Positions 2,439-41,080 of a stretch of 64,000 bases of DNA are shown in pieces. Origin of the DNA: Mytilus edulis (lineage: Eukaryota). Positions within the stretch are counted from its first letter, which is position 1; the number at the start of each line of letters is the position of its first letter. Under the pieces are notes generated by a model that was not told the origin of the DNA, did no database searches, and was given only the letters and a program-made list of their open reading frames with translations. Position numbers and translations under genes: made by a program. The stretch is taken from assembly GCF_963676685.1 (NCBI RefSeq), contig NC_092349.1, positions 2,046,001 through 2,110,000 on the forward strand, in the 5' to 3' direction.

Positions 2439-2869
2439 TCAAACTTATCAAGGCAACACATAGAACTTAACTAAAATGTTATAAACTACGAAGATTCTAT
2501 TTAAACATATATGTATAAGTATATTTTGTGTTTCGTGTTTGTTATACTAATCAATCAACAGTAATTAAAAAAGCACAAATGGATAACTATGGACAGTGTA
2601 TTATACAAAGAAATAATTTGAAAATATTCGACGGTTAAAATTATGAATTTCAATTGTCGTTTGCATTTGATAGATCTGCTGACAAGTCATTTTATGTTTA
2701 TTGATTACAATAAACAATAAAATAGATGTTTGCACACAAGTTTGATTGTGTTAATATATGATTTATGATATTAAAGTAAGACATTATTGAAATTTCATGC
2801 ACTCAACTTCTACTTTGCTCGACAACAAGGCCGTCCAATGAGTAAACGAGTTGATACTTTTATTTATTT

Positions 2870-4783
2870 CTAACATGATTGTAATTTATATAGTCTTATT
2901 AACTCTGTTTTATCTATTACAGACAACAGATTTCGACCAACGACTAAACTATTTCCGTCACCGAAGTAATTAGGAATTTTTAATGTTGACACTGGTTTCA
3001 AATCACCATCAACCGACAGAACACGCACTGCTTTTGATTCACGTAAGAATACATATATTTTACCATCATCAAAACAAACGCCTTCTGGGGTGTCATTTAA
3101 ATCGTATGTCCATTTGACGCGTGCATTTTGATTGAAACAAGAAATAAAACTGTTGGTTTTAGTTTCAATGCTAACTACTATATTCCCATTTGGAAGACAA
3201 CATATGCTTTTTAGAGGCATGATAAAAGGATCTCCAAACTCGTTTGGTTCGCAAAGAAAATTTTCACTAAAATGTTTAAGAACATTTCCATCGACGTCGA
3301 TGATGTCAATATGCGATGTTACACCACGTGACCAATCAAAGTTAACTCTTTTCTTTGAAGCACCACTGGGACTTGAATGACTAATGACTGCAAAAGTACA
3401 ATCCGGCAACTGAGAGATACTAAAGTACGCATTTTCAGTTACTTTTTCGGATATAATACTCAAACTGTTATAAGTTGATAAACGGATAAGACGCGATTGT
3501 TTCCCAGGGGAAGTAACTAAGACATCGTCGTTTTCATGGATATTGGTGATGTCGTATATACCTTGAATCAGAACTTCATCAATGAATTGATTTTCAATAG
3601 TGTCTCTGAATCTTTGTACCTTAAAGTTTGCATTATCTATAGCAATTATGGAATGTCCATGAATAATTACACCTGTAAATCTTGCAGTTATTTTATTTTC
3701 TGATTCACTCGGATCACGTTGAATTGCTAGAAACGGGTCAAGTTCTAATGCACGAAGAGGTAAAACGTCTGATGAAAATTTGATGCGCTTGCTGCATACT
3801 GTGGCTTCTGTGTCCTCGAAGTCGACTGCATCAGCAGGAACAACATGAACCGTTCCTATCGGTTGATCAATCAGTGTTTCACATAAATTCAGAAACTTTT
3901 CGTTTAGTTCCAGTTTAAGCTCAATTGGATTATCTGATACCGCAAGCGAATAAAGCAGATCCGTATTTTTCTGCAGACTTTCCGGAATTTTTGACAACAC
4001 GGTCAAAATGTCTTTAGTTGAAGTCAGGGATTTTGATAATTCTACTTCATCACGGATTCGTTTTAAATCTTTAACAATTCCTTCTGTTCTTTTCTTCAAT
4101 TCTTCTACGTTTGTAACGCTATCAACTTTGCTCAATATGTCTAAACATTTTCGATTTATCATTTTCTCAAAATCTTGAACAATTGTCTTCAATTTGTAAA
4201 TAGTACTTCTTATCTGCTGCCTTGATTGCACCAATAATTGATCTTTGTCGATCTCTTTAAAGACAATATCCTGTCCGGTGATTATTAAATTTTCTATTTC
4301 GTCATACGCATCTCTCAATTTTTCCCTTGCTAAGTCGGCACACTTTTTGAAATTTTTGCAATTACATTCGGTACCCCTATGATTCTCAACAGCACATTCG
4401 GAACATATAATTTTATAACACCCAAAACAGAAAAAGTCACACAAGTTTTGTGGGTGATCGGAACATAGTATACCATCTTTAGGTTTTGTTTCCGTTTTTG
4501 TATCACCTGATATAGCCTGGAGTAGCAGTAGAGATAACTCGTCTGTTGGAAAGGAACTAGCCCATTGTTCTGCTGATATGGTATAAGATGACGCTGTAAT
4601 CTCGCGTCTATCCACAGGACACGAGAATTTGTTAAAACGTCTAGTTGATTCTATCAATTGGGTTAAACATTCAAAGCATATCGAATGGTCACATGGTAAT
4701 AGTTTCGGATCTTTTAAAGTGTCCCGACATATAGGACAGGATAAATGATCAGATGTTATATTATCTGCTAGTCTTCTCTGCAT
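2870..4783 (-). CDS. TRIM E3 ubiquitin ligase (RING, B-box, coiled coil, NHL-like beta-propeller), paralog 1, 637 aa
   Basis: RING CPIC..LPCDHSICFEC..CPVDR; B-box CSDH..FCFGC..ICSEC..H; helical region; C-terminal propeller-like repeats. ATG 4783 (MQRRLAD) follows acceptor ttttatAG (4786-4785), so the ORF-track start at 4801 is intronic. Confidence 0.92.
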   Translation of the reverse strand: MQRRLADNITSDHLSCPICRDTLKDPKLLPCDHSICFECLTQLIESTRRFNKFSCPVDRREITASSYTISAEQWASSFPTDELSLLLLQAISGDTKTETKPKDGILCSDHPQNLCDFFCFGCYKIICSECAVENHRGTECNCKNFKKCADLAREKLRDAYDEIENLIITGQDIVFKEIDKDQLLVQSRQQIRSTIYKLKTIVQDFEKMINRKCLDILSKVDSVTNVEELKKRTEGIVKDLKRIRDEVELSKSLTSTKDILTVLSKIPESLQKNTDLLYSLAVSDNPIELKLELNEKFLNLCETLIDQPIGTVHVVPADAVDFEDTEATVCSKRIKFSSDVLPLRALELDPFLAIQRDPSESENKITARFTGVIIHGHSIIAIDNANFKVQRFRDTIENQFIDEVLIQGIYDITNIHENDDVLVTSPGKQSRLIRLSTYNSLSIISEKVTENAYFSISQLPDCTFAVISHSSPSGASKKRVNFDWSRGVTSHIDIIDVDGNVLKHFSENFLCEPNEFGDPFIMPLKSICCLPNGNIVVSIETKTNSFISCFNQNARVKWTYDLNDTPEGVCFDDGKIYVFLRESKAVRVLSVDGDLKPVSTLKIPNYFGDGNSLVVGRNLLSVIDKTELIRLYKLQSC

Positions 4784-12738: not shown

Positions 12739-12955
12739 ACTACTACTACTATGATAACTATAAGTTTTACTACAAATACTACTACAACTACTACTACTAC
12801 CACAACACTATTACTACAACTATAACTTATAGTTTTACTACTACTACGTCGTACTACTACTACTACTACTACTACGTCGTACTACTACTACTACGTACTA
12901 CTATTACTACTACTACTACTACGTACTTCTACTACTACGTACTACTATTACTACG

Positions 12956-12997
<42 letters not shown>

Positions 12998-13029
12998 GTA
13001 CTACTACTAATACGTACTACTACGTACTA
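12739..13029. repeat. (TAC)n microsatellite running into an assembly gap
   Basis: tactactac tracts with tacg interruptions; resumes briefly after the Ns. Confidence 0.95.
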
Positions 13030-13543
13030 NNNNNNNNNNNNNNNNNNNNNNNNNNNNNNNNNNNNNNNNNNNNNNNNNNNNNNNNNNNNNNNNNNNNNNN
13101 NNNNNNNNNNNNNNNNNNNNNNNNNNNNNNNNNNNNNNNNNNNNNNNNNNNNNNNNNNNNNNNNNNNNNNNNNNNNNNNNNNNNNNNNNNNNNNNNNNNN
13201 NNNNNNNNNNNNNNNNNNNNNNNNNNNNNNNNNNNNNNNNNNNNNNNNNNNNNNNNNNNNNNNNNNNNNNNNNNNNNNNNNNNNNNNNNNNNNNNNNNNN
13301 NNNNNNNNNNNNNNNNNNNNNNNNNNNNNNNNNNNNNNNNNNNNNNNNNNNNNNNNNNNNNNNNNNNNNNNNNNNNNNNNNNNNNNNNNNNNNNNNNNNN
13401 NNNNNNNNNNNNNNNNNNNNNNNNNNNNNNNNNNNNNNNNNNNNNNNNNNNNNNNNNNNNNNNNNNNNNNNNNNNNNNNNNNNNNNNNNNNNNNNNNNNN
13501 NNNNNNNNNNNNNNNNNNNNNNNNNNNNNNNNNNNNNNNNNNN
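13030..13543. other. Assembly gap (514 N)
   Basis: Run of N. Confidence 0.99.
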
Positions 13544-13786
13544 ACTACTTCTACTATTATTTCGTTTAAGTTCATGAACATTTCTTAATATATTTGTATA
13601 TACATACATGTATATATAAACAATTTATTTACAAAAACGTTTATAAATATGAAAAGTTTTCTAAATAATTGATTTATGTACGAGGTCCTAAATTATGTGG
13701 AGCAAACCTTTTTAAAATCAACGACTCTTTTACAAACGTACAATGCCTTCCCATCCACAAATCATATACACATTGGTTCAATTTTA

Positions 13787-15866
13787 TCATCGCAACTTAT
13801 ATATTTTAATTAAATCAGTTTTGTCTATCACAGTCAAAAGATTTCTGCAAACAATTAAATTATTCCCGTCACCGAAGTAGTTAGAAAGTCTTAACGTTGA
13901 CACTGGTTTCAAATCTCCCTCAACTGATAAAACACGCACTACTTTCGATTCGCGTAAGAATACATATATTCTGCCATCATAAAAACAAACACCTTCTGGG
14001 GTGTCATTTAAATTGTATGTCCATTTGACGCGTCCGCTTTGATTAATGCAAGAAATAAAGTTGTTTGTTTTTGATTCAATGCTAACCACTATAGCCCCAT
14101 TTGGAAGACAACACACATTATGTAGAGGCATTATAAAAGGATTACCGAATTCGGATGGTTCACAAATACAAGACTCACTTAAATGTGTTAAAACATTTCC
14201 CTCGACGTTGATAATATCAATATGTGACGTTACCCCACGTGACCATTCAAAATTAATCCTCTTGTTTGAAACGCCACAGGGACTTGAATGACAAATCACT
14301 GCGTACAGATGATCTGGTAATCGTGATATATCATAATACGCCTGATCAGTTACAGTCTTTGAAACTATGCCCAAACATTTGTAAGTTGACAAACGGAAGA
14401 GACACGACTGTTTCCCAGGGGCAGTAACTAGGACATTGTCGTCGTCTTGAATATTTGCAATAGCGTATACACCTTGAATTGAAATTTCATCAATAAACTG
14501 TTCTTTCACATTGATCCGGAATCTTTGTACCTTAAAATTGGCATTGTCTATCACAATTATCGCATGTCCATAAAGAATTAGACCTGTAAATCTTGCGGTT
14601 ATTTTGTTCTCTAGTCCAATTGGGTCAACTTTATCACTGTACTATTGTGCATATTTTAGGGGCCAGCTGAAGGACACCTACGGGTGCGGGAATTCTCGCT
14701 ACATTGAAGACCCATTGGTTGCCTTCGGCTGTTGTTTGCTCTATGGTCGGGTGGTTGTCGCTTTGACATATTCACCATTTCCTTTCTCAATTTTATTTAA
14801 TCTCGAGAAAAGGTTCCAGTTCAAGTGCTCGAGAAGGTAATACGTCTGAAGAAAATTTGACTCTCTGACTGCAAACTGTGGCCTCCGTATCTTCAAAATC
14901 TAAGGAATCAGCAGGCAGAACGTGAACTGTTCCAATTGGTTGATCAACAAGTAAGTCACACAATTCAAGAAACGTTTCATTTAGTTCAAGTTTTATCCCA
15001 ATTGGATCATCTGATACTGCAAGGGAATTTAGCAGATCAGTATTTTTCTGTATACTGTCGGGAATTTTCGATAAAACAGTCAACATATCCTCGGTTGAAG
15101 TTTGAGATTTGGAATGTTCTATGTCACCACGGACTCTTTCTAATTCTTTAACGATTCCTTCCGTTTTTTTCTGCAGTTGTTCAACGTTTACAACGCTTTC
15201 AACTTTGTTCAAAATGTCTAAACTCTTTCGATTTACCCTTTTCTCGAAATCATGAACGATGCTCTTTAATTTAAAAATAGTAGTTTTAATTTGCTGTCTT
15301 GATTGCATTAGGAGTTGATCTTTTCCAATCTCTTTATAATTAGTAACGATGTCCCGTCCGTAGCTAATTATATTTTCTATTTCGTCAATCGAATTTTTCA
15401 ATTTCTCTCTTGCTAAGTCGGCACATATTTTGAAATTCTTGCAATCACAGTCGAAACTGCTATGTTTGTCAACAGCACACTCGGAACATATTATCTGATA
15501 ACACCCGAAACAGAAAAAGTCACAAAATTTCTGAGGATGTTCGGAACAAGGTATATCATTTTTATAGTTTTCTTGCGTTTTAACACCACCCGAGATAGCT
15601 TGTAATAACACTACAGCTAAATCGTCTGTTGGAAAAGATTTAGCCCATTCTTCTGCTGATATTGTGTAAGATGGCATTGTTATCTCACGTCGGTCCACGG
15701 GGCACGTGACTTTGTTAAAACGTCTTGTTGAGTTTATCAACTGGGTCAAACATTCACAACATAAAGTATGGTCACATGGTAATAATTTTGGGTTTTTTAA
15801 TGTGTCTCTACATATAGGACAAGATAAATGATCAGATGCTATGTTATCTGCAAGTCTTCTCTGCAT
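13787..15866 (-). pseudogene. TRIM paralog 2, disrupted by a 166-bp insertion (or a truncated RING-B-box-coiled-coil allele)
   Basis: ATG 15866 after acceptor AG 15869-15868. Removing 14630-14795 restores ...LEIK|VDPIGLENKITARFTG... and a 1914-nt (637 aa) frame colinear with the paralogs. Confidence 0.85.
14630..14795 (+). mobile_element. 5'-truncated 3' end of a Penelope-like retroelement family
   Basis: Absent at the equivalent site of paralogs 1 and 3; its reverse complement matches 54445-54611, the 3' end of the RT-bearing element. Confidence 0.85.
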
Positions 15867-22027: not shown

Positions 22028-22069
22028 TATATAAACAATACGTCTGTATAAAACATTTATTCATTTCTA

Positions 22070-23977
22070 TCATTGTAATTTATAAAGTTTTATAGAACTA
22101 GTTTTGTCTACCACTGTCAAAAGATTTCTGACTACGAGTAAACTACTGCCATCACCAATATAATGAGGAAGTTTAAAGGTGGACGTTGGTTTCAAACCAC
22201 CCTCAATCGACAGGACACGCACTACCTGAGATTCCCGTAGGAACACATATATTTTTCCATCATAAAAACTAACGCCTTCTGAAGTATCATTTAAATTATA
22301 AGTCCATTTGACGCGTCCGTTTTGTTTAATGCAAGAAATAAAACTGTTGGTTTTAGTTTCAATGCTAACTACTATAGTCCCATTAGGAAGGCAGCACATA
22401 CTTTTTAGAGGCATAATAAAGGGATCACCGAATTCGGTTGGTTCACAAAGAAAGGATTCACTAAAATGTTTCAAAACATTTCCATCGACGTTGATGATAT
22501 CAATATGTGACGTAACCCCACGTGACCAATCAAAATTAGCTCTCTTTTTGAATGCACTGCTAGGTCTTGAGTGACAAATGACTGCGAACGCAGAATCTGG
22601 CAAACGCGAAATATCATAATAGGCCTTATCAGTAACTGTCTCTGACATTATGCTCAAACTCTTGTAAGTTGATAATCGAAAAAGACGCGATTGTGTCCCA
22701 GGGGAAGTAACTAATAAATCGTCGTTGTCATGGATATTGGTGATATCGTATGCACCTGGTATTGCAATTGCATCGATGAAACTATCTTTAATTGTGTCTC
22801 GGAATCTTTTTACTTTAAAGTTTGAATTGTCAACGGCAATTATTGAATGTCCGTGAAGTGTTAAACCTGTAAATCTTGCAGAATTGTTTTTCTCTAGTCC
22901 ACTTGGTTCATCTTTAATCTGGAGAAATGGTTCAAGTTCAAGTGCACGAGAAGGTAAAACATTTGATGAAAATTTGATTCGCTGGTTGCACACTGTAGCC
23001 TCCGTGTCTTCGAAATATAATTTATCCGCACGAACGACATGAACTGATCCTATTGGTTGATCCACAAGTTTGTCACACAAATTCAAAAACGTTTCATTTA
23101 GTTCAAGTTTTATCTCAATTGGGTCATCTGACACTCCAAGTGAATTGAACCGATCAGTATTTTTCTGTAGATTTTCAGGAACATTTGATAAAACGGTTAG
23201 CATATCCTTGGTTGAAGTTTGTGATTTTACATATTCTATTTCATCACGGACTCGTTTCAAATCTTTAACAATTTCTTCTGTTTTTTTCTGTAGTTCTTCT
23301 ACGTTTACAACGCTTTCAACTTTGCTTAATATGTCCAGACATTTTCTATTTACCATTTTCTCAAAATTATAAACGATGGACTTCAATCTTAGAACGGTAT
23401 CTTTAATCTGCTGTCTGGATTGCGACAAGAGTTGATCTTTTTCAATCTCTTTAGTGACGATTTCCTGTCCGTGACAAATTAGGCTTTCTATTTCGTCAGA
23501 TGCATCTCCTAATTTCTCTCTTGCTAAGTCGGCACAGTTTTTGAACTTTTTGCAATTGCATTCGGTACTTCTGTGATGCTCAACAGCACATTCTGAACAT
23601 ATAATATGATAACACCAAAAACAGAAAAAGTCACAAACATTATGAGGGTGTTCGGAACAAAGTATCGCATTTTTAGATTTTCCTTGCGTTGTCACATCAC
23701 CTGCAACAGCCTGAAGCAAAACTATAGCTAACTCGTCTGTTGGAAAGGAATTAGCCCATTCTTCTGCTGATATATTATAAGAAGGCGCTGTTATCTCTCG
23801 TCGGTCTACTGGGCATGAAAATTTGTTGTAACGTCTTGACGAATGTATCAGCTGGGTTAAACATTCACAACATAAAGTATGGTCACATGGTAGTAGTTTC
23901 GGATCTTGAAAAGGGTCTTGACATATAGGACAAGACAAATGGTCAGATGCTATATTATCCGCAAGTCGTCTCTGCAT
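22070..23977 (-). CDS. TRIM E3 ubiquitin ligase paralog 3, 635 aa
   Basis: Same architecture; 39 of the first 50 aa identical to paralog 1; acceptor ttttcAG 23980-23979 one base before the ATG. Confidence 0.92.
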   Translation of the reverse strand: MQRRLADNIASDHLSCPICQDPFQDPKLLPCDHTLCCECLTQLIHSSRRYNKFSCPVDRREITAPSYNISAEEWANSFPTDELAIVLLQAVAGDVTTQGKSKNAILCSEHPHNVCDFFCFWCYHIICSECAVEHHRSTECNCKKFKNCADLAREKLGDASDEIESLICHGQEIVTKEIEKDQLLSQSRQQIKDTVLRLKSIVYNFEKMVNRKCLDILSKVESVVNVEELQKKTEEIVKDLKRVRDEIEYVKSQTSTKDMLTVLSNVPENLQKNTDRFNSLGVSDDPIEIKLELNETFLNLCDKLVDQPIGSVHVVRADKLYFEDTEATVCNQRIKFSSNVLPSRALELEPFLQIKDEPSGLEKNNSARFTGLTLHGHSIIAVDNSNFKVKRFRDTIKDSFIDAIAIPGAYDITNIHDNDDLLVTSPGTQSRLFRLSTYKSLSIMSETVTDKAYYDISRLPDSAFAVICHSRPSSAFKKRANFDWSRGVTSHIDIINVDGNVLKHFSESFLCEPTEFGDPFIMPLKSMCCLPNGTIVVSIETKTNSFISCIKQNGRVKWTYNLNDTSEGVSFYDGKIYVFLRESQVVRVLSIEGGLKPTSTFKLPHYIGDGSSLLVVRNLLTVVDKTSSIKLYKLQ

Positions 23978-26910: not shown

Positions 26911-27107
26911 CAATTTGCTCTTTCGAAGTAAATAGACGCAGATATATTAAAGATATGAGACGACTGGATGCAAAGCAATACTAAATAAATGCTCAGTAGG
27001 AATTAAAACGAATTAAAATAAAACATTTAATTTTGGCAAATTATTACAATTTCATATGAAAAAACAATAATAGACGTTAAAGTTAATCCAATCAATGTTC
27101 AGCACCA
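26911..27107 (-). repeat. Split direct repeat B2 (197 bp)
   Basis: No differences seen against 27594-27790. Confidence 0.95.
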
Positions 27108-27376
27108 CCATTCATCAACAACACTTTGACCACACGTCTGTATTCAGCAGGCAACGATAAATCGGACATCTACACCATTGTGAATTAATCCGTATCCAAA
27201 TTATCGGTTATAAACTCTATTGCTCCTTTATTGTCCTTTAATCAGTCGATTATATTGTAAATTCGTATATCCACAGTAACACCGTCAAGGAACATACACT
27301 GAAAAATAAAACTTCCACAGAAAATGAGACTGAAACTACTGATTATAAATATTGGGTGGGATAAATAATGGGAGGG

Positions 27377-27790
27377 TTAGTTTTCGGCTATTGACGGCAG
27401 AATGAAAAACTTAAAATTCTTTAAATCACAAGTATATAAAGGAACCAATCAGAATGCATTGTTATGTTATAAAATTCATAACAAGTTGTATCATTAGCTG
27501 TATGTAAAGAACCGAAATAATTCGAACAGTATAAAGTCTATTTCTTTTATCTCTAGTCGCCAATTATATATTTTTAATTAATTAAAAATAGCACAATTTG
27601 CTCTTTCGAAGTAAATAGACGCAGATATATTAAAGATATGAGACGACTGGATGCAAAGCAATACTAAATAAATGCTCAGTAGGAATTAAAACGAATTAAA
27701 ATAAAACATTTAATTTTGGCAAATTATTACAATTTCATATGAAAAAACAATAATAGACGTTAAAGTTAATCCAATCAATGTTCAGCACCA
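27377..27790 (-). repeat. Internal B1-A2 repeat junction
   Basis: 27377-27595 matches 33174-33392; 27594-27790 matches 26911-27107; the two overlap by CA. Confidence 0.95.
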
Positions 27791-27884
27791 AAACCCCAAC
27801 GGCCAAACAGTAACTACAGCACATTGATTGATATTAAACAAAATTTAAAAGCTATTTAAGTTACAAGCAAAAATAATGAAAATA

Positions 27885-28068
27885 CTGACATGAGTGGTCA
27901 GAAATCACAAAATATCACTGACATGAATGGTCAGAAATCAAAAAATATCACTGACATGATTGGTCAGATATTTCTAACAAATACATATAATAATACCGAC
28001 ATGAATGGTCAGATATCAAACAATACCACTGACATGAATGGTCAGATCTTTCTGACAAGATTGGCCAG
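27885..28068. repeat. Array of six 17-bp palindromic units CTGAC-N7-GTCAG in the element's 3' UTR
   Basis: Units start at 27885, 27918, 27951, 27996, 28029, 28052. Confidence 0.9.
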
Positions 28069-28197
28069 AAAACAAAATGTTCCCTTAAGGATATATACAA
28101 TCACCCACTACTGTAAGCACAATTAGACAAAAAAGGCACAGAATAAGATTGCTCCTTCTGTTTAACAGTAACAAGATGAGACTTAACATCCTCTTGT

Positions 28198-28722
28198 TTA
28201 ACAATGAGACAATACTTGAACAAAAAAATTTGTCAATTTCAAATTACCAAAATAATTCAAATGTAACTTACAGATGGGTGAATAAAGTTCACAAACTGGC
28301 ATCCCAAACTTTAAAAAAGGTTTATAAGTAGCTACAAACTGAACACCACGTTTAAAGCATAAACTTCTTAATCTAGAATTAATAGTAGTGACAAAATAAC
28401 TTGTATTCTGAAAATCAAGTAAGCGTGGAATAATTGCTGACATAACTATGACAGTATGTGGCTTAACTAATTTCTCAATTGTAGAGATAAGCACATTATA
28501 GCCTATATCAAAATCAGCAATCTCATAGGTACCAACATTGTTGGTTCCTACATGCATCAGAATTATATCATAATTTACCTGAATTGTTCCACAATTAAGC
28601 AAATTGATCATATCCCAAATATTTGCTCCAGGAAAGGCTTGCAAGTGACACCTTCTAATTGTTTTAACATGCTTGGCTATGGAATCGCACACCAGAGTAG
28701 ACCTAAAATCTATAAAGAGCAA
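28198..28722 (-). CDS. SGNH/GDSL hydrolase-like ORF of the Ngaro element
   Basis: Block I CDS(I), block II PGA, block III HVGTNN, block V CKLHLN; true start unresolved. Confidence 0.8.
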   Translation of the reverse strand: MLFIDFRSTLVCDSIAKHVKTIRRCHLQAFPGANIWDMINLLNCGTIQVNYDIILMHVGTNNVGTYEIADFDIGYNVLISTIEKLVKPHTVIVMSAIIPRLLDFQNTSYFVTTINSRLRSLCFKRGVQFVATYKPFLKFGMPVCELYSPICKLHLNYFGNLKLTNFFVQVLSHC

Positions 28723-28725
28723 AAT

Positions 28726-29718
28726 TTATTTTAAAACAAAGTCTTTAATTTGTTCCGCTACATTGATTTTATCAGACAAAGAACTGACAATATATTTAGT
28801 ATAGCAATTGCTTTTCCAATCACCCATCAATTGAATAGAACTAGGAGAAACCCCTGCTTTCGATGCCAACGTTGCTCCACCTCTTCGGAAACTATGGGAA
28901 GAAAATAAATTTGGATTTAATCCAATTTTACAAAGTAATTCTCTCAGTTTATTCTGAAACTGGTTATAAGTAATTGGTATGCATTTCCCCTTTTTTTTAT
29001 AAGAAAAAGCGGCATCATCTGACGTGCAAGGATTTAAAGAACACATCCTTTTATATGCATTTACTGGGCAAAATTTAGATAGAGGATATGCAAGCAAAGG
29101 TATCCTTAAAATACGATTACCCAACTGAATTGTTTTTGTCCATTTGAATGCAACTATTATAAGAGACGGAAAGACTGTAACATCACCTCTGCACAGCTGT
29201 TTATTTTTGTCAAATTTCTTGGTTGATACTGGAACTAAATTAGACTTCCTGCTTAAAAGTAATAAAGCAAAAAGAAATAAACACCAATATGTCGCATCTA
29301 GCGGCGTATTCAAATTCAAATGTTCACGAATTTTTCCTAAAATTTCTAAAGTAATAGGAAATGCCTGTTTAGGTAAATGTTTTAATTTCCTATCTAACCC
29401 TTTCATAGTCAACTTCAATTCGTAAGACGAAAAAACATCCACATGTAATCCTAACAACAGGAAAAGAACTTTAACTCCGTTTAAATAATTGCGAATAGAT
29501 TGAGCTGATCTGAAACTTCTACTGAGAAACTCGGAATAAGTGCATAATAATTCAGAATCAATATCAAACGGTTCTAAATAAAAGTAATTACAAAACAATA
29601 AATAAGCTCTCCACTGCGTTTTAAAATTAACCAAAGTACCTTTCGCGAAAGCCGAAATCCTAGTCACAAACATATCTCGTCTTAGCACTTGCAAATCTAC
29701 AAAAACACGAATAAACAA
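28726..29718 (-). CDS. Tyrosine recombinase (YR)
   Basis: LSRKSNL (R), KWTKT (K), HSFRRGGAT (HxxR), GDW..YTKYI (W, Y); first ATG at codon 16. Confidence 0.95.
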   Translation of the reverse strand: MFIRVFVDLQVLRRDMFVTRISAFAKGTLVNFKTQWRAYLLFCNYFYLEPFDIDSELLCTYSEFLSRSFRSAQSIRNYLNGVKVLFLLLGLHVDVFSSYELKLTMKGLDRKLKHLPKQAFPITLEILGKIREHLNLNTPLDATYWCLFLFALLLLSRKSNLVPVSTKKFDKNKQLCRGDVTVFPSLIIVAFKWTKTIQLGNRILRIPLLAYPLSKFCPVNAYKRMCSLNPCTSDDAAFSYKKKGKCIPITYNQFQNKLRELLCKIGLNPNLFSSHSFRRGGATLASKAGVSPSSIQLMGDWKSNCYTKYIVSSLSDKINVAEQIKDFVLK

Positions 29719-31491
29719 TTACCAAATATGTTCAAACTGAAACAATTCTTTAGAAATCAAATCTCTAAATAGGGACATGCCTTTTGTCCTCTCGTAAAAG
29801 TCTAACTGAAATTTATAATCTAAATTCCATCTAGACAAAAGATCTGGTAAACGGTTATCGCAACCTGAAATATGTTTAGCTTTTAACTCAAAATTATTTA
29901 CAGCTGCAATCCAACAAACTTCCCTCAAACACGACTGCAGGAACTCATTTCTGGTGGCGCCTGTATTCAAAACACGTACTGATACCATATTATCGCAATA
30001 AATAATCACCTTTAAATTTGTGAAATGTTTTCCCCATAATTTCAAGGCTACTACAATCGTCAACATCTCTAATAAATTTATATGCAAGTTTTGATCTAAA
30101 ATAAACTCTGGAAATGAACAGTGAAAGTATCTTCCGTCCATCCATCCGCCACATCCTGTCAAACATGCATCAACAGAAAACAATTGATCAGGGTTTGAGA
30201 ATTCATCAGATAAAATCATAGAAATCCCATTATAACTAGGCAAAAATTCCTGCCACCAGAATAAATCACGTTTAAAATCAGTTGGAATTACTATTTTCAC
30301 ATTATCAGGAAAATCTCTTAACCAATTTAACAGCCTTGACACAAAAATTCGGCCAGAGCGCACACATTGAGATACAAAATTTAATTTTCCCAGCAATGAT
30401 TGTAATTCTCTCTTTGTACAATTTGTGCTACAGAGCCAATTAGAAACTAACTGCAGAATCTCTGACAATCTTTGAGTGTCAATAGAAATTGTCATGTTCT
30501 CAGAATCAAATAAAATGCCAATAAACATCATTTTAGTAGTAGGCGGACAAGCCTTCTCAATTGATTCTTCAATGCCACAATTCTGTAAAATAAGACCCAA
30601 TTTAGCATAAGCATCATCACTGCTGGAAGGAATATCACATCCAGCCAAATCATCTAAATAGTTCAAAATATCTATACCCATGTTTTGACATATAAATGCA
30701 ATAGCATTTGTTGTTCGCATACATATATATGCAGCAGATCTCAACCCCATTGTTAATACACGATCGTAATACAAGTGTCCTCTCCATTTGTAACCTAAGA
30801 GATGGATGTCACCGGGGTCAACGACTAATTGTCTATAAGCCCGTTTCAGGTCCCTCTTAAACATTCTGCAACCTTGACCTTTACTCTTAATTAACATAAT
30901 AAAATTATCAACCGTGGGATACGAAACTGAAATTTCATCGCCTAAATAACGATCTTTGAAAATACCAGAATTAACCGCCTCGCCCTCTGGAAAGCTCAAA
31001 TCAACAATAACTCTGCGTTCTGTTGAATCCTTTTTAGGAACGGAATTTAAAGGAGATAAAGCTGAAGGACAGCTGAACGGATTTGCCTTAAATGGTCCAA
31101 CAATTGCTTTATAAGAACTTTCTTTTTTCAAATATTTGGCAATATCATCTGGAAAATCAGTAGCCCCCGAATGATTACGGGAAAAAGATGACCTGAACGG
31201 GCTCCCATCGTGACCCACCGGCCATCCATACTCTAAGAAGTCACAAACCTGAGCGTCACTGTAATTCTGTAACAAACTTCTTAAAAAAAAAATATTGATT
31301 TTAGAGTAAATTGGAATTTTACAACCCTGAAAATTGTACAATCCAGATTTTTTAACAATGTTATGAATAGATACAAAATTTTGCATATCATCTAAACCCA
31401 AATAACTGTTACAACAAAGACTGCATTTAAGTGAATGTCTAGAACCCCATAATGTCTTTTGAAAATCAAGTAACTGAACATGTTGATTTAG
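29719..31491 (-). CDS. Reverse transcriptase-RNase H (DIRS/Ngaro type)
   Basis: RVIVDLS, DLKRAYRQ, MGLRSA, YLDD; RNase H VDAC..HINLLEM..YCDN..DLLSR. Frame is open from 31491, directly after the gag stop; first ATG at 31386. Confidence 0.95.
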   Translation of the reverse strand, partial: LNQHVQLLDFQKTLWGSRHSLKCSLCCNSYLGLDDMQNFVSIHNIVKKSGLYNFQGCKIPIYSKINIFFLRSLLQNYSDAQVCDFLEYGWPVGHDGSPFRSSFSRNHSGATDFPDDIAKYLKKESSYKAIVGPFKANPFSCPSALSPLNSVPKKDSTERRVIVDLSFPEGEAVNSGIFKDRYLGDEISVSYPTVDNFIMLIKSKGQGCRMFKRDLKRAYRQLVVDPGDIHLLGYKWRGHLYYDRVLTMGLRSAAYICMRTTNAIAFICQNMGIDILNYLDDLAGCDIPSSSDDAYAKLGLILQNCGIEESIEKACPPTTKMMFIGILFDSENMTISIDTQRLSEILQLVSNWLCSTNCTKRELQSLLGKLNFVSQCVRSGRIFVSRLLNWLRDFPDNVKIVIPTDFKRDLFWWQEFLPSYNGISMILSDEFSNPDQLFSVDACLTGCGGWMDGRYFHCSFPEFILDQNLHINLLEMLTIVVALKLWGKHFTNLKVIIYCDNMVSVRVLNTGATRNEFLQSCLREVCWIAAVNNFELKAKHISGCDNRLPDLLSRWNLDYKFQLDFYERTKGMSLFRDLISKELFQFEHIW

Positions 31492-32958
31492 TCATTCATT
31501 ATGATGAGGACATGCAGACGAACATTCAGGATGATGACTTTTAAGTTTGTCTAATCTATAACAAGTGGCACAAAAATGATTAACCTCACGTTCAACACCT
31601 CTAATCAGAATTTTATGCGGTGATGTTTTTGAACATTTATTTTTCTGAAATAACGAACAATACCATAAAGTATGTGTCTTGGTCTCTTTTTTAGCCCCAA
31701 AAGAATGCTTCTTATCGAACTCTTGTTTGACATATTTAGACAAAAGAGGAACTTCCAAATTATCAGGAGTATCTTTCCAGGTTTTAGCACCCGTTTCAAT
31801 TTGTCTCAAAAAGGCAGCATAGAAGTCAAGTAAAGATTTCCACTGATAAATGGAACTGTAATATACAATTTTCTTCAAAAGGGACAATCGAGTATTTCTC
31901 TCGATAGCTTTAATTTTACTTGATCCAATTATTTCTAATTCCCCTGCAACAAACAGCTTTAAATCTAAATCTTGAAATGAAACAGATTTATTTATATATT
32001 CGTACTGAAGTGTAGTATGGGGCCAAGTTTGTGGATTCTGCACGTCATCGCTTGCTTTAGCAACCATACCCGATTTAACCTTTCGCTTTTTAAGTGATTT
32101 CTTTTTACAGGACGAATCTGTACCTGATGTACTTGAAGTATCATCATCAGTACTAGACTCGAATGAATCATAGTCAGAACTATCAGATGACTCTGATATT
32201 ACTCTTGACTTGTGTTTTGTCACCCTGGAGCTACCCGACTTTTTAAACTTTTTGGCCTTAGCCGATTTAACCTTCGGGACATGAATACTGTCGTCCGAAT
32301 CGGAATCAGAATATTGTAAAGGAACTTTTGAACTCTTCTTTTTCAAAGATTTGTTTTTACGTTTGCGTAAATGCGAAGAAAAATCATGCTCACTAGTAGA
32401 ACTACCATGAGGACTTTCACTAGAATCAACTAAATCTATTAAATTATTCTTTTTTAAAATATCTGATAATTGTTTCTCTACTAATTTAGTCAACACTTTC
32501 TTTTTTCTTAATTTGTCTAAATTGATCTCACCCTTCCTTTTAACACTTTTGGAGTCGCTGGTGTCTTTTCTTTTCGCTGATTTGGTCTTTTTACCGGCTA
32601 TTTCAGTTGATTTCACTTTAGGAGCACTCGACTGTGGCTTGTGCGGATTGTTCGACTTCTCAACTACACCTTTCTCCTTGACCGGATCAATAAGTTTACT
32701 CGACTCCCCATTTTTCAAACGAGTTTTTGGGATAGCCCCCTGTTTTTCAAAATCGGATTTTTCAAGTTTCCTTTCTTTTTCGGAAATGCTTAACTCTAAA
32801 TTGTGGATCCTATGTTCCAACCTATCCACTTCATCAGGTGAAGTCTCATGATCAAAAATGTCAGAAGTAGGGTCCGAAACATCGAGAACGTCCTGATCAA
32901 AACCAAATTCACTTAATAGTTTATAATTTTTTCTAGCTTTATTTCGGGTTACAGGCAT
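31492..32958 (-). CDS. Gag-like ORF1, 488 aa
   Basis: ACCATG at 32958; coiled coil, Lys/Ser-rich region, C-terminal Cys/His cluster (C..C..H..HFCATC..H..C). Confidence 0.85.
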   Translation of the reverse strand: MPVTRNKARKNYKLLSEFGFDQDVLDVSDPTSDIFDHETSPDEVDRLEHRIHNLELSISEKERKLEKSDFEKQGAIPKTRLKNGESSKLIDPVKEKGVVEKSNNPHKPQSSAPKVKSTEIAGKKTKSAKRKDTSDSKSVKRKGEINLDKLRKKKVLTKLVEKQLSDILKKNNLIDLVDSSESPHGSSTSEHDFSSHLRKRKNKSLKKKSSKVPLQYSDSDSDDSIHVPKVKSAKAKKFKKSGSSRVTKHKSRVISESSDSSDYDSFESSTDDDTSSTSGTDSSCKKKSLKKRKVKSGMVAKASDDVQNPQTWPHTTLQYEYINKSVSFQDLDLKLFVAGELEIIGSSKIKAIERNTRLSLLKKIVYYSSIYQWKSLLDFYAAFLRQIETGAKTWKDTPDNLEVPLLSKYVKQEFDKKHSFGAKKETKTHTLWYCSLFQKNKCSKTSPHKILIRGVEREVNHFCATCYRLDKLKSHHPECSSACPHHNE

Positions 32959-33173
32959 GGTAAGCCTCCTGTGTAAGACAGGGCAACTTGAAAAAGTAAT
33001 TATTTTTTTTGCAACAAATGACTTGATAAAAAATTTAAAAGACAAAAAGAAAAAGAAAATTAAACACCAAAAAAGTACTTACGAAAAATAAAGATACAAA
33101 AGTTTCACAGCTCAAATAAATCAAAAGTAGTTGCCATGCCTCACAGGATGAACTTTCAACGGAAAACACAACA

Positions 33174-33392
33174 TTAGTTTTCGGCTATCGACGGCAGAAT
33201 GAAAAACTTAAAATTCTTTAAATCACAAGTATATAAAGGAACCAATCAGAATGCATTGTTATGTTATAAAATTCATAACAAGTTGTATCATTAGCTGTAT
33301 GTAAAGAACCGAAATAATTCGAACAGTATAAAGTCTATTTCTTTTATCTCTAGTCGCCAATTATATATTTTTAATTAATTAAAAATAGCACA
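33174..33392 (-). repeat. Split direct repeat A1 (219 bp)
   Basis: One mismatch seen against 27377-27595 (ctatcg vs ctattg). Confidence 0.95.
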
Positions 33393-35472
33393 CTTAAAAT
33401 AATGGATCGAATAGTTGATTTATCTTACATTTTTATTTGTGTTACTTTTCACAAAAAAAAAAATGGATCAAATAGTTGATTTATTAGATACATTTTTAAT
33501 TTGTTTTGTGATTTCGTAAACTTCAATGTGTTTGTGTATTCCAAACTGCTACAGTCATGTTGTCTACACTGTTCTTAAATTTTGAGTGAAGGGGTCAAAA
33601 CACAAAATCAAATTTTTAACCACTTATTGCACATGGTCTAATTAAATAAAATGCACACACATTGCATCTATAAAGACAACGTTGATTGTATATGAACAGA
33701 AACTAACAATTTTCTCTCAACATTTCATGGAACATATCGAAGAGCAGCCCGCCCCCTCTCTTTTGTAAAATTAATATAGTTCCTCTTTTGGTATCGTGTA
33801 GTTTGCAATCAGCGAGAATTACTTCAGGAAAAAAGTTACTGTGATGCTTATTAATCGTCCATAGTGGTTAAACTGACAAATTCAACACTAGTCTAGGATA
33901 AATATATAATCACTTGAATATTTAAATGCAGATATAATTTTTGATGTTTTAATTTTTTCGGGATATTGAATTTCACACTTTTTTCGTTCACTAAAAGAAT
34001 AATATGATTTGTTTAATTTGGTATTTGATATAGGAACAATAAATTACCACGAATATCCGGATTATAAATGTCTCCTGAAATAAATTTTGTACATTTTGTT
34101 TTGCTTTGAAATACAGAAAAAACACATTTATTGTATCCCCCCCGCTCTAAATTCCTATGAGGCCTCCGTAGTAATATTAAAAAAACGACAACCAGCTGAT
34201 GATCTGGTGATCTGTACGCCGAAAAAATCCGAAAAAAAACTTGCATTGTCAACACTAATACAAAGTTAATAATTATTTGTTACATGTATAACATAACAAC
34301 TAATTTTAGCAGTAAAAAGAAATAACAAAACAATGCCCGATATAATATACAATAGTGTTTGTTTGAATTTTTAGTCCTCAATGCTCTTCAACTTAGTGGC
34401 TTTATAACTATTTTGATCTGAGTGTCACTGATGAGTCTTATGACGTTACGTTACGTACGGCAATGCGTTCGAATTAAAATACATTATATTATTGCATAGC
34501 AATATAATATCTCCCATAGAAAGTAACCAAAAGTTAGCGTGCGATAAATTATTATTTTAGAACCAGCAACTATTCGCCTATGCAAAATAAATACACCAAC
34601 ATGCATATCTTTTTTTACATAAATAAGGCCGTTAATTTTCTCGTTTAAATGTTTTACGTTGTCTTATCGGGGCCTTTTATAGCTGACTATGCGGTATAGG
34701 CTTTGCTCATTGTTGAAGGCCGTACGGTGACCTATAGTTGTTTTAATGTCTGTGTCATTTTGGTCTTTTGTTGCTAGTTGTCTCATTGGCAATAATGCCA
34801 CATCTTCTTTTTTATATATATCTACAGAAAGGCCTTGACAGGTTTTTCTTATTTTAAATAGCCGTTTTTTTGGCGTTGGGTGAAATTTGAAGGAAGTCCT
34901 CAACGAAGTATTCAGCAGAGGAACCGGTCTTTATGCGCTATAAAGAAACTTAATCAAATTTCGAAATGTATTATAATCACTAACTTATATATAATCCAAT
35001 CATATTAAACTATACTCAATAGAAAGTTCTGAAAACGATAACCAATTTCAAAGTTTAAATGTAAATAAAAACTTTTACGTAGAAATGGAAAATTGTTTTG
35101 AACTGTTATGAGGTTACATGGAATGAGTTTCGTGATACATGTAGTCTCTACAGATCCATGCGCCTATATTATTCTATAATCAGCTGACGAAAGTTTCTTT
35201 TTATGTAAAAGTATTAACTCTGAAATATTTGTCACATAGGCTGTTTCTGCATGTCAGTGATTTGTAAACTCAGACTCATCATTCTGAGTTAGGTTTATTA
35301 TAAATGTTATAGACAACCTCAAATGCATACCCTGCAACATTTAAAAATACAATAAGATACTATACACACGTACGAACAACGATAACGCTAATTATATATA
35401 TTTCTACTATCAACGCATCCATGCCAAGAAATTGCCTCCGTTGAAATCTTGCAAACATCCCATAGAGCAAAT

Positions 35473-36472: not shown

Positions 36473-39400
36473 GTTAGGCTATTGCTATCAGTTCGGGCGA
36501 AGACTCCAAACAGACAACATGCATGTTTAATAACGCAACTGTGTATTTTCTAATTAAATGAAAAAAGTTGCCGTTCCGGTACATGAATAGATCGGTTAGA
36601 AAGCAAGGTTTAAATTTTAATTATTTTGGAAAGCTTAATTTGAGGGTTGAAATCGGAGAGCACGTAAAAAGGGGGACGGGTTTTTCAACAGGGAATATTT
36701 GTTTCTAATGAACTCTACATTCGGAGGGTTATTTTTTTTTAATTTGATTAAAAATGGGAAAAACAAATGTAAGGTAAATTGTGAACGGTCTTTTTTCCTT
36801 TCTCCCGAGGGGAAATTAGCTTATAAATCTGGTTTACTGTCAAACCCGAGCACATGTCTTTCTGTTGTGTCTGTCATTAGGTGGCTGTATTATTGACGTT
36901 TTCCCATAATTTCTGATTGAAGCACAATGCACACGTACAAATTGTTTTAGAACATGACATTAAAGTTTTATGTCATGCATAATAAAGTAAAGAAAAGCAA
37001 AAAAGAGACTCAAAGAACTAAATACAAAAAGACCAAATGATCTGATTTTCTGTACCTGTAATTTCTTAACTGAAAAAAATGTTTTCACTGGGAATGCTCG
37101 AGCTGAAACCTACACTTTTCAGTTTGGCAAGGGCAATACTCTGTTTTTAATTTTGTAATTTTTGCGCATTGATCGTTAAAGACCCTGTCAGTGGTTCAAG
37201 GTATTGCTTGCCAAAGACAAGTCTACTAAGTTAACGAATGGTGCATTCGAATAGGGACTGCTGCATTCCTTCTCAGAAATTTTGCAATCTTTCGACATAG
37301 AAAACACCCTTTTCTGTTTAAAATAGATATTTTACATTATAAGGTGTCGACTGTAAGTTAGTAATGGAACTTGAACAACTTTGAAAAGTTAAATTTGTTA
37401 TATTACAGATAATAAAAGTTTATAAATGTTATGAGATTTAAACAAAAGGTTGCCACATATGATACCATATGATGGACACACTAACCTTGAAAGTTAGTCC
37501 CCTTCTATATGTTGCCTTATCATTGGAAATCTTAAATATCTTCTCATGATTTAATGCTTTCCCCTAAAATATCCGACAAAATTTTTAAATAGTTTTTTTT
37601 AAATTATCCTTTTCTTCTAGTTATTCAAAATTATTAGAGGTTAAGCTTTTTCATGTCCAGTGGCACATATTACACTGTTATCCGAAATAATCGTTGTACG
37701 ATGCTGGAAAATTACTATTGTCAGATTAAATTTCAAATAAATGGATTCGTGTTTAACAAAACTAAGATCGATCTGTGTGTGAAACGTCTAAGATGTACAA
37801 TGATTGATGTAGTCATTGTTGGTCTTTAAGCCACATTCCTCATTATTTGCTATGTCATAGCGCCCAGCTTTTTTTCACTGTAGAAAATTGGAACGGCCGG
37901 AGAGAACCACTGACCTTCGGCAAGAAAATTGTCAATCCTAGTCAATTAAGATTGGAGTCGAACCAAGCTACCACGTGTTGGGTTCCAACTCTGAAATAAT
38001 CAATGAAGCAGTACATTTTACTAATAAAAAAACTTGTTTCTCACTTTATCCAGTTTGATTTGATATATAGTTTTGTTTTCTATTATTCAAATTGAAGAAA
38101 TCAAGACGTTTTTAAAACGAAATGAAGAAAAAAGGTAGCCGAGTGCATAGTTCTTTCAAACATATTCTTTTATCGCTGGGATGCTGTCTCGTCATGCCAA
38201 GAAATTGCCTCCGTTGACATCTTGCAAACATCCCATAGAGCAAATTACATGGATGATTAATGTTGACATTTGGTATATGATCGTGTTCTAAGCGACACAT
38301 ACATGCAGGTCATCAATTAATTTGTTGAATGAAATCAAATCTTTAACTACTAATAGGTGCCGTTGGAGGTCAACCGCAATTTTTTAGAGAGGATTTCTTG
38401 GCATGTAACAGATTGAAAATTCAGAGTAAAAAATTATAAAACAGACAAGGGGCAGTGGCAAATATTTCATGTATATCATAAACACAGAGAAGGTTACCCC
38501 GTCACCCTTTGCCAAAAAAAAAAACTCCTTCCTTTTTTCCATGTGACTTCGGACTTTATGTTTTGAATTGTAATTTCACTTTCCATATTCGGTATTCATT
38601 CTAATGTAAGCTCCACGTGGCAAATATCACGTGGTGCATGAATATTGTATCTTGGAGTTAGGCTATGTCTTTCAGTTCGGGTGGGGACTCCAGGCAGACA
38701 ACATACATGTTTTATAACGCAACTGTATATTGTCTAATTAAATGAAGCAAGTTTCCGGTCCGGTACATGAATAGATCGGTTAGAAAGCAGGGTTTTATTT
38801 TTAATTTGATTGGAAAGCTTAATTTTAGGGTTGAAATCGGAGAGCACGAAAAAAGGGGGACGGGATCTTCCACAGGGAATATTTGTATCTAATGAACTCT
38901 ACATTTGAAAGGTTATTTTTTTTTTAATTTGAATAAAAATGGGAAAAACAAATGTAAGGCAAAGTGTGAATGGTCTTTCTTCCTTTCTCCCGTGGGGAAA
39001 TTAGCTTATATCTGGTTTACCGTGAAACCCGAGCACAGGTCGTTCTGTTGTTTCTGTCATTAGATGGCTGTATTATTGACGTCTACCCCATAATTTCAGA
39101 TTGAAGCACAATAAACACGTTCAAATGGTTGTAGAACATTAAGTTAAAGTTTTATGTCATGCATAATAAAGTAAAGAAAAGCAAAAACGAGACTCGAAGA
39201 ACTAAATAGAAAAAGACGAAATGATCTGATTTTCTGTACCTCTAATTTTTTAACTGAAAAAAAAATGTCTTCACTGGGAACGCTCGAGTTGAAACCTACA
39301 CTTTTTTAGGTTGGCAGGGGCAATACTCTGTTTTTAATTTTGTAATTTTTGCGCATTGGATCGTTAAAGACCCTGTCAGTGGTTCAAGGAATTGCTTGTC

Positions 39401-41080
39401 AAAGGCATGTCTACTAAGTTAACGAATGCTGCATTCGAATTGGGACCGCTGCATTCCTTCTCAGAAATTTTGCAATACTTTGACATAGAAAACACCCTTT
39501 TCTGTTTAAAAAAGATATTTTACATTATAAGGCGTCGACTTTAATTTAGTAGTGGAACTTGAATAACTTTGAAAAGTTAAATATGTTATAAAATTTAAAC
39601 AAAATTTTGCTACATATGATACCAAATGATGGACACACCGACCTTAAAAGTTAGTCCCCTTCTACATGTTGTCTTATCATTGACAATCTTAAATATCTTC
39701 TTAAATGACATGACTTATTGCTTTACCCTAAAATATCCAAAAAATGTTTTTAAAAATAGTTCTCTTTTAAAATTATCCTATTAGTCTTCTAGTAATTCAA
39801 AATTAATGCAGGTTAAGCTTTTTCATGTTCAGTGGCACATATTACATTGTTATCCGAAATAATCGTGTTAACAAAACTAAGATCGATCTGTGTGTGAAAC
39901 GTCTAAGATATACAATGATTGATGTATTTATTGTTGATCTTTAATGCCACTTTCATCATTATTTGCTATGTCATGGCGCCCAGCATTTATTTTAATGTAG
40001 AAGCTGGAACGCCCGGAGAGAACCACTGACCTTCGGCAAGGAAACTGTCAATCCTAGTCAATTAAGATTGGAGTCGAACCAAGCTATCACGTGTTGATTT
40101 CCAACTCTGAAATAATCAATGAAGCAGTAATTTTTTACTAATAAAATAAACTTTATCCAATTTAATTTGATTGATAGTTTTGTTTTTCTATTATTCAAAT
40201 TGAAGAAACCAAGACTTTTTAAAAACGAAGATGAAAATGAAGAAATAAAGGTAGCCCAGTGCATAGTTATTTCAAACATATTCTTTTATCGCTTGGATGC
40301 TGTCTCGTCATGCCAAGACATAGCCTCCGTTGAAATCTTGCAAACATCCCATAGAGCAATTTCCATGGATGATTAATGTTGACCATTTGGTATATGGTCG
40401 TGTTCTAAGCGACACGTACATGCAGGTCATAAATTAATTTGTTGAATGAAATCAAATCTTTAACTACTAATAAGTGCCGTTGGAGGTCAACTGGAATTTG
40501 TAACAAGGATTTCCTGGCATGGTAGTAACTTTTTAAGAAATTTTAACATTAACTGGAACAATAAGCAGTAAAAATAGATCATTCATTTGCAAATAACGAC
40601 CAAAAATATATTTGTCTGAACATTCCACGTATGAAAATCAGTAGAAGTTAAAGCTGTCACAGAGAGGTAATAAATTGATTAAAACTAGAGCAGGTGGGTA
40701 TGTTGCATGTGTTGTATAGGGGCAAAGTTTTACTTTAAAACAGGCTAGGTTGTCATGCACTTAATTTCGAGCAAAAAAAAAAAACAGAATTTCTAGGCGG
40801 AACTGCGTATTTTATAAAATGCAAAAGAACACAAAGTCCGGAAAATAACAATTTAGTTTGCATATGTAATAAACATGATAAACACAGATTTGCCTTAGTT
40901 ATATTTCTGCCCAGAGCAAGTAACCGGCCTGCACAGGTACCACCATTTGCATATTGAAATTCAACAAGATTTGATTAACCAATCGTTCGTTAGTAATAAC
41001 ACAAACGTTAGAAGATAATGTTAAAAAGCATAATTCAACGGAAATCTTTTGATGCAAGAACTAATCAAAGACATTAACAT

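Follow-up and report, generated by a model that had tools for sequence, protein, structure and literature searches.

How do tyrosine recombinase (YR) retrotransposons express their downstream open reading frames (ORFs), which often have no start codon of their own? The question is raised by a Ngaro element in a stretch of 64,000 nucleotides from the genome of Mytilus edulis (assembly GCF_963676685.1, contig NC_092349.1, positions 2,046,001 to 2,110,000 of the forward strand), which is called the window in the following and whose own numbering is used throughout. On the minus strand, the element has four stop-to-stop frames at 31492-33078, 29719-31491, 28726-29718 and 28198-28725, all of which end at positions that are 1 modulo 3, and a single translation spans the gag, reverse transcriptase (RT)/RNase H, YR and SGNH hydrolase frames with three internal stops only. 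An earlier reading of the letters alone (the sequence-only reading) had described a Ngaro element with four ORFs in one frame, separated by single stop codons, and this description is borne out by the frames, the Pfam matches and the repeats; the congruence of the ORF ends and the quoted junction letters are likewise correct. We regard it as likely that one transcript of this element gives rise to four proteins, by reading through the stop codon at the end of gag and by alternative splicing from a donor site within gag.

According to this plan, the unspliced RNA would be translated into Gag and, in a minority of events, into Gag-Pol by reading through UGA-CUA. The donor inside gag would be spliced to either of two acceptors, resulting in a Gag-N-recombinase of 465 aa or a Gag-N-esterase of 312 aa, and the spliced mRNAs would thus borrow the gag start codon together with the first 142 residues. 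As the donor and both acceptors are in phase 1, either acceptor would give an in-frame fusion at any gap length. The shared Gag N-terminus would likely serve as a multimerising, RNA- or particle-binding tag for loading.

The relatives come from two sources. Protein searches of the genome gave 129 YR and 78 RT matches, from which 80 stretches were taken, with 17 own-genome representatives (27-64% identical in RT) in the family tables; a scan of metagenome contigs gave 144 related loci, and the 80 best of these were added. The 17 representatives and the 80 metagenome loci were pooled at 75% RT identity into 75 clusters, of which 12 could not be tested at the gag stop (contig ends or RT start missing) and 63 could. 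A scan of viral contigs gave 71 pattern matches, none of them a relative. In the pooled YR counts, L163 was taken out as a member of the same family as F2, and three YR rows and one SGNH row without motif or acceptor were dropped. The donor test covers 39 families, as 10 of 49 were too short, and the tree covers families of this genome only, with a midpoint root and F9 left out.

At the first junction, gag directly abuts pol in frame in 49 of the 63 testable clusters. The stop is TGA in all 49 abutting families, and the next base is C in 47 of them; the following codon is CTA in 25 and CTG in 8 of the 49, and CTAG occurs in 16. In the controls, TGA-C was found at 3 of 69 true pol terminators and at 446 of 5618 off-frame stops (Fisher p 1e-26). 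The linker from the stop to the start of RT similarity is always open, although unconserved and of 2-229 codons among families, and in 27 of the 49 families it contains no Met. The gag stop of the window agrees with the sequence definition of type II readthrough (UGA followed by CUA or CGG), for which UGACUA is a described hexamer, while UAA is described as a weak readthrough codon (PMC13517186). Because the TGA-C context is conserved at an in-frame gag-pol junction, programmed readthrough at the gag UGA-CUA is likely. The TGA-CTA families L069 and L070 are positioned outside the main clade, among overlap-type families, and the signal would therefore be either old or of two origins. Among the intact own-genome families, only F10 (L051-L054) carries TGA TGT in place of TGA C at this stop; its pol linker is long (776-aa ORF), and an SGNH match is missing.

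The stops of the window are genuine, as had been assumed by the sequence-only reading: they recur in other copies of the family. TGA CTA is kept in four of five other aligned loci, the fifth (L012) being a decayed copy with deletions at this position. The RT stop TAA is kept in 9 of 10 family copies, with a 27-nt deletion in L003, and the YR stop TAA in 9 of 9. As these sister copies retain them, the stops are not inactivating mutations.

The second and third junctions behave differently from the first. Frame offsets of 0, 1 and 2 were found in 19, 18 and 24 of 61 families at the RT-YR junction and in 5, 13 and 7 of 25 families at the YR-SGNH junction, neither of which differs from an even distribution (p 0.60 and p 0.12, respectively), and all offsets are 0 in 3 of 22 families with all junctions, against 2.4 expected. 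Besides the family of the window, two metagenome families have offsets 0,0,0, and both carry extra stops. What is retained at these junctions is a pyrimidine tract with a YAG, placed after the upstream stop and ahead of the first conserved motif. The best acceptor is in phase 1 in 49 of 58 YR gaps and in 23 of 24 SGNH gaps, whereas other YAG sites in the YR gaps, taken as control, are in phase 1 in 55 of 173 cases. A Met lies between acceptor and first motif in just 11 of 50 phase-1 YR rows and 2 of 23 SGNH rows, and the first Met of the window SGNH frame is downstream of the block I Ser. In the window family, YR and SGNH appear to lie in frame by chance: the short gaps that precede the acceptors (22 nt at RT-YR and 16 nt at YR-SGNH) would be intron sequence and thus free in length.

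Congruence of frames among relatives had been set beforehand as the check on the shared frame. It holds at the gag-pol junction and is at chance level at RT-YR and YR-SGNH, and the shared frame is therefore not supported as a feature in itself. The sequence-only reading had invoked readthrough and/or splicing; both seem to be involved, divided by junction, with readthrough at the first, where it is inferred, and splicing at the second and third. Its estimate that three junctions would agree by chance in about 1 of 27 cases becomes about 1 in 9, because the second and third junctions are at chance level among relatives.

A mini-intron of 26 or 22 nt at the RT-YR junction, using the GT of TGG TAA, was considered and rejected: such a joint is absent in the four sequencing runs mapped, and the GT is missing in families ending with TGG TGA or TAG. 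The C-terminus of pol is a Trp followed by the stop (TGG TAA, TGA or TAG; 29719-29724 in the window) in most families of the hydrolase clade, and corresponds to a conserved C-terminal Trp of the RNase H.

For the splice from gag to SGNH, the joined sequence occurs in run contigs, in one genomic copy and in gene models. AGG/GTGAGA at codon 143 is the top-scoring donor in the window gag, and the sole joint from the four runs connects 32532 to 28709 with GT-AG borders, skipping 3822 nt, in contigs of runs X1 and X2. The depth at this joint is 27 in X1 and 39 in X2, against 12 and 14 across most of the skipped part, which makes the Gag-N-esterase RNA the more abundant form in these two probable RNA runs. 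A genomic copy (L076) lacks exactly the same 3822 nt, which is what reverse transcription of a spliced RNA would leave behind; of the 43 junctions that were scored, no other has GT-AG borders. The RefSeq protein P0002 of Mytilus trossulus (312 aa) consists of gag residues 1-142, a D and the SGNH domain with three mismatches, and P0003 of M. californianus has the same join, its gag part being 80% identical. Across families, the best gag donor is in phase 1 in 37 of 39 cases, whereas the pol controls give 25 of 39 (p 0.001); the donors lie 152-490 codons before the stop, and the individual predictions are weak. It is thus likely that gag-SGNH splicing yields the Gag-N-SGNH protein of 312 aa.

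Some further observations concern this region. An intron in the leader, from GTAAGT near 33082 to AG near 32969 and thus upstream of the gag ATG, was discarded as a candidate, as contig 7 of X1 reads through it. In run X23, 11 reads exit the element at the SGNH acceptor (28710) into other sequence, possibly a host exon spliced to the SGNH exon. Five old fragments (L078, L079, L080, L082 and L084; G000:C8, 78.5-79.4 Mb), which are 81-95% identical, end at or just past the gag donor and continue with unrelated sequence; L078-L080 share flanks and resemble segmental duplicates, and the gag piece of L078 contains stops.

For the recombinase, the evidence is of a different kind. Four RefSeq isoforms (P0127, P0130, P0132 and P0133) join the gag donor 32532 to the YR acceptor 29696, and three scallop models (P0025, P0057 and P0090 of 475, 462 and 463 aa, from Pecten, Mizuhopecten and Argopecten) have a full YR domain after about 140 residues. 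These scallop N-termini carry a basic motif and match a profile of it with E values of 3e-6 to 3e-4 among eight test sequences; the same motif occurs in 18 of 33 gag proteins and in 20 of 147 control windows. The scallop fusions are gene models, and the mussel isoforms support the use of the YR acceptor, not a recombinase product. Neither the 43 scored junctions nor the 13 sequences that match the YR acceptor region include an intron-less gag-YR copy. From these data we infer that a full-length Gag-N-YR mRNA may exist, with a predicted product of 465 aa. The gene models also contain mixed forms: in P0127, the phase-1 donor 29640 is joined to the SGNH acceptor to give a 57-nt micro-exon form of 331 aa, and in P0015, a phase-1 donor near 29119 is joined to this acceptor to give a form of 354 aa with half of the YR followed by SGNH. 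The donor at 29640 was unseen in the four runs.

Several points weigh against the proposed expression plan. On the side of splicing, the four mussel isoforms leave the YR after 57 nt via the second donor and encode no recombinase, and the joint at the YR acceptor 29696 is absent from all four runs. That X1 and X2 are RNA is a guess (“probable RNA”), and the declared RNA runs X20 and X23, with 37 and 112 reads, contain no joint at the gag donor; the RefSeq sequences are predicted models. Donor and acceptor scores were calculated with generic weights, GGT codons skew donors to phase 1, as visible in the pol control, and the motif pattern is misplaced in a few YR rows that were kept in the counts. 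On the side of readthrough, the argument is one of conservation. A conserved stem-loop or other stimulatory RNA structure was not found from +7 to +96 nt after the gag stop (mean z +0.37 compared to +0.06 in controls, with 1 of 49 below -2; z 0.09 in the window). In Candida Tca2, the in-frame gag UGA is not read through from its local context (PMC2194720). Moreover, gag does not abut pol in 14 of the 63 testable clusters, namely in four distant overlap-type families of this genome and ten metagenome loci. The latter ten look broken or truncated, and several of them have a stop followed by Leu just past the gag Cys/His box. Finally, the families are related, and the counts therefore are not independent events.

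What alternatives exist for this combination of readthrough and splicing? If splicing to YR and SGNH is accepted, Pol could still be made by another bypass of the gag stop, such as reinitiation at Met36, a route like that of Tca2 (for which PMC2194720 gives the precedent), or a splice just past the stop, and we consider such a bypass unlikely, albeit less so than the other alternatives. The pol frame of the window has indeed a Met at codon 36, upstream of RT similarity, and where the first conserved motif was found, a Met precedes it in 15 of 29 families, but the remaining 14 have none. A phase-1 AG is supplied by TGA CTAG in 16 of the 49 families, and in 24 of 49 the best YAG at no more than 70 nt from the stop is in phase 1; however, a pyrimidine tract is missing at these CTAG sites (mean 5.0 of 12, compared to 8-11 for most YR acceptors), the window has CTAA instead of CTAG, and the contigs of X1 and X2 are continuous across the gag stop. 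Neither reinitiation nor splicing requires an in-frame stop or TGA-C, yet both hold at this junction, in contrast to the free frames at the two junctions that are spliced. The YR could also start at the ATG of its own frame (29673, 315 aa), reached through leaky scanning or reinitiation, in which case the spliced forms would be by-products, or silencing splices by which pol is removed and the activity of the element lowered. The RefSeq model P0007 of 315 aa begins at this Met; the absence of a gag-to-YR joint from the four runs would fit, as would those mussel models in which the YR acceptor is used non-productively. We nevertheless judge this improbable, given the scarcity of a Met between acceptor and first motif in YR and SGNH rows, the acceptor phase that is kept across families of about 50% identity in RT, which junk splicing would not predict, and the full models of gag-N-like sequence plus YR in three scallop species.

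The shared frame could be functional itself if serial readthrough of the three stops produced graded polyproteins. This very improbable explanation agrees with the four in-frame ORFs in the window and in most copies of its family, and with the two metagenome families of offsets 0,0,0, but such congruence is found in relatives as often as expected by chance, and both further cases contain the extra stops mentioned. In addition, the stop codon at both later junctions is TAA with a T or an A after it, a poor context for readthrough (PMC13517186), the YR-SGNH gap is 1 nt shorter in two older copies, and 2 nt at 29705, inside the RT-YR gap, are absent in 5 of 5 reads of run X23. Hardly any probability remains for stops that arose by inactivating mutation in an ORF that was once continuous, or for a UGA read as selenocysteine: single in-frame stops do resemble nonsense mutations, and the conserved stop is always UGA, yet the stops are common to sister copies and to families at about 50% RT identity, the C at +4 and the bias for CTA fit a near-cognate readthrough, and the stop is positioned in an unconserved linker.

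The proposed use of a leaky gag stop together with spliced Gag fusions can be compared with known systems. In Moloney murine leukemia virus (MLV; UAG plus pseudoknot), Candida Tca2 (UGA) and SIRE1, gag and pol share one frame with one stop, as in the window (PMC2194720), and this arrangement is expected to set a low Pol:Gag ratio there as well as here. These are retroviruses or long terminal repeat elements with protease and integrase, whereas the window element has UGA-C and neither a downstream structure nor a protease was detected; because no protease domain was detected, its Gag-Pol would likely stay fused. Alphaviruses and mammalian UGA-CUAG genes use the type II signal UGA-CUA/CGG (PMC13517186), of which the window has the same hexamer; alphaviruses often add an extended stem-loop, and in the window none was found within 90 nt. 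Comparable in layout are DIRS-53_XT and DIRS-54_XT of Xenopus tropicalis, which have the same repeats and the same ORF order with SGNH and without methyltransferase (PMC9210276). In these, all reading frames overlap, and word searches of the available text of PMC9210276 found no mention of splicing, introns or stop codons; the window element, in contrast, has a single in-frame TGA between gag and pol, YR and SGNH as 3' exons, and no overlaps.

For the SGNH domain, the best match among solved structures is PDB 4c1b (E 0.002), the ORF1p of zebrafish ZfL2-1. The Ser, Gly, Asn and His residues are invariant in six families, and the window lacks the Asp of block V (CKLHLN), for which D-x-x-H is the usual motif. 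ZfL2-1 ORF1p consists of a coiled coil, a linker and an SGNH esterase in about 300 aa and binds phospholipids (PMC3905857), and Gag-N-SGNH, with 312 aa, resembles it by a basic N-terminus that likely forms a coiled coil (by eye), followed by linker and SGNH. The difference is that the LINE ORF1p is one ORF, while the counterpart in the window would be assembled from gag by splicing. A wider hypothesis is tentative, with the balance slightly on the side of doubt: a whole branch of animal Ngaro elements would make four products from one RNA, in which UGA-C readthrough would set the Gag:Pol ratio, alternative 3' splicing would attach one Gag-N tag to both recombinase and esterase for loading into the particle, and the esterase fusion, given its likeness to the lipid-binding ORF1p, may be a membrane-binding particle component with an env-like part.

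The features tested mark the element as an ordinary Ngaro retrotransposon. It is 6.5 kb long (26911-33395) and bounded by split direct repeats in the order A1-ORFs-B1-A2-B2, which is the Ngaro layout A1-[ORFs]-B1-A2-B2 (PMC9210276, PMC8547959). The repeats are direct rather than inverted, unlike DIRS1-like elements with inverted terminal repeats and an internal complementary region. PAT-like elements are defined by split direct repeats together with a methyltransferase domain (PMC7192593), and this domain was not detected: after the RNase H, the Pfam scan gave no methyltransferase family, no DPPY/NPPF-type pattern was seen, and pol ends about 35 residues past the last RNase H motif. The ORFs adjoin without overlap, unlike the usual description of Ngaro elements. 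From its first ATG at 32958, the gag frame encodes 488 aa, and the pol, YR and SGNH frames have 590, 330 and 175 aa, respectively. The Pfam scan of the window proteins gave RVT_1 (E 3e-4), Phage_integrase (1.2e-5) and, for the ORF after YR, Lipase_GDSL_2 (PF13472, E 3.3e-6), each below its own curated cut-off, and neither a protease domain nor a DDE integrase; gag had no match and was assigned by its position and Cys/His box. Near-identical named proteins are from Mytilus species, and the genome contains several copies of 98-99% identity among 72 matches. The features are listed in Table 1.

Table 1. Positions of the features of the Ngaro element within the window.
Feature	Position	Strand	Evidence or remark
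Split direct repeat A1, at the 5' end	33174..33395	-	99% identical to A2
gag ORF, 488 aa; basic motif at the N-terminus, middle part rich in Ser/Lys, Cys/His box at the C-terminus	31492..32958	-	
5' splice donor AGG/GTGAGA; exon end 32532, phase 1, gag codon 143	32526..32534	-	X1/X2 joint, L076, RefSeq P0002/P0003/P0127
gag stop, putative readthrough signal TGA CTA	31489..31494	-	Conservation among families
pol ORF of 590 codons for RT and RNase H; intact YLDD and acidic RNase H motifs; Gag-Pol of 1079 aa predicted	29719..31491	-	
Pyrimidine tract and AG acceptor for YR; exon start 29696, phase 1	29697..29718	-	RefSeq P0127, P0130, P0132, P0133
Tyrosine recombinase exon with the R, HxxR, W and Y motifs; predicted Gag-N(142)-YR 465 aa	28726..29696	-	
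Second phase-1 donor inside YR, AAG/GTACTT; exon end 29640	29634..29642	-	RefSeq P0127, P0130, P0132, P0133
Pyrimidine tract and AG acceptor for SGNH; exon start 28709, phase 1	28710..28725	-	
SGNH hydrolase exon; predicted Gag-N(142)-SGNH 312 aa; no Met before block I Ser	28198..28709	-	
Short imperfect tandem repeats, 3' untranslated region (repeat family D19)	27873..28058	.	
Split direct repeat B1	27594..27790	-	100% identical to B2
Split direct repeat A2	27377..27598	-	
Split direct repeat B2, 3' end of element	26911..27107	-	

In many copies of several families (L002, L003, L006, L013, L031, L098, L103, L107, L111, L115, L041, L126 and others), A1 or its first part is retained and leads straight into the interior of the element at a point that varies; the two sides share a few letters, and GT-AG is absent. 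These copies look like 5'-truncated cDNA that still gains A1, which may be a clue to the replication of Ngaro elements; similar Ngaro elements lacking ORF1 are described in Cafeteria (PMC8547959). Elsewhere in the window, three copies of at least 1.7 kb (2859-4556, 13770-15639 and 22053-23750), which are 77-84% identical and 8-11 kb apart, are probably a tandem gene family. Further repeat pairs at distances of about 2.1-2.2 kb lie at 36473-40430, and a long TAC-rich simple repeat at 12749-13041 adjoins a run of N.

As to what was known before, the abstract of Goodwin and Poulter (2004) reportedly mentions spliceosomal introns in some YR elements, and the splicing may thus have been partly anticipated. 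Overlapping ORFs have been described for Ngaro and DIRS-type elements (PMC9210276, PMC6681497, PMC5633606), and as the YR of fungal elements can be in frame or frameshifted relative to RT (PMC3783388), overlap is not strictly defining. In the literature searched, including word searches of the available texts of PMC8547959, PMC7192593, PMC4157794 and PMC8226300, neither readthrough nor gag-fusion splicing was found for Ngaro or DIRS elements; the founding paper and the 2015 review lay outside this search. The conserved expression plan beneath the shared frame is apparently undescribed. The function of the Ngaro SGNH ORF is unproven (PMC9210276).

The plan addresses how YR retrotransposons express downstream, often start-less ORFs, and it predicts exact products, namely a Gag-Pol of 1079 aa, a Gag-N-YR of 465 aa and a Gag-N-SGNH of 312 aa. 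If it is true, elements of the DIRS order would join the retroelements that use stop codon readthrough, with dozens of natural UGA-C contexts, and ORF-finder annotations of the Ngaro YR and SGNH proteins would miss their real N-termini. A set of “uncharacterized” bivalve RefSeq genes would then be explained as spliced transposon products.

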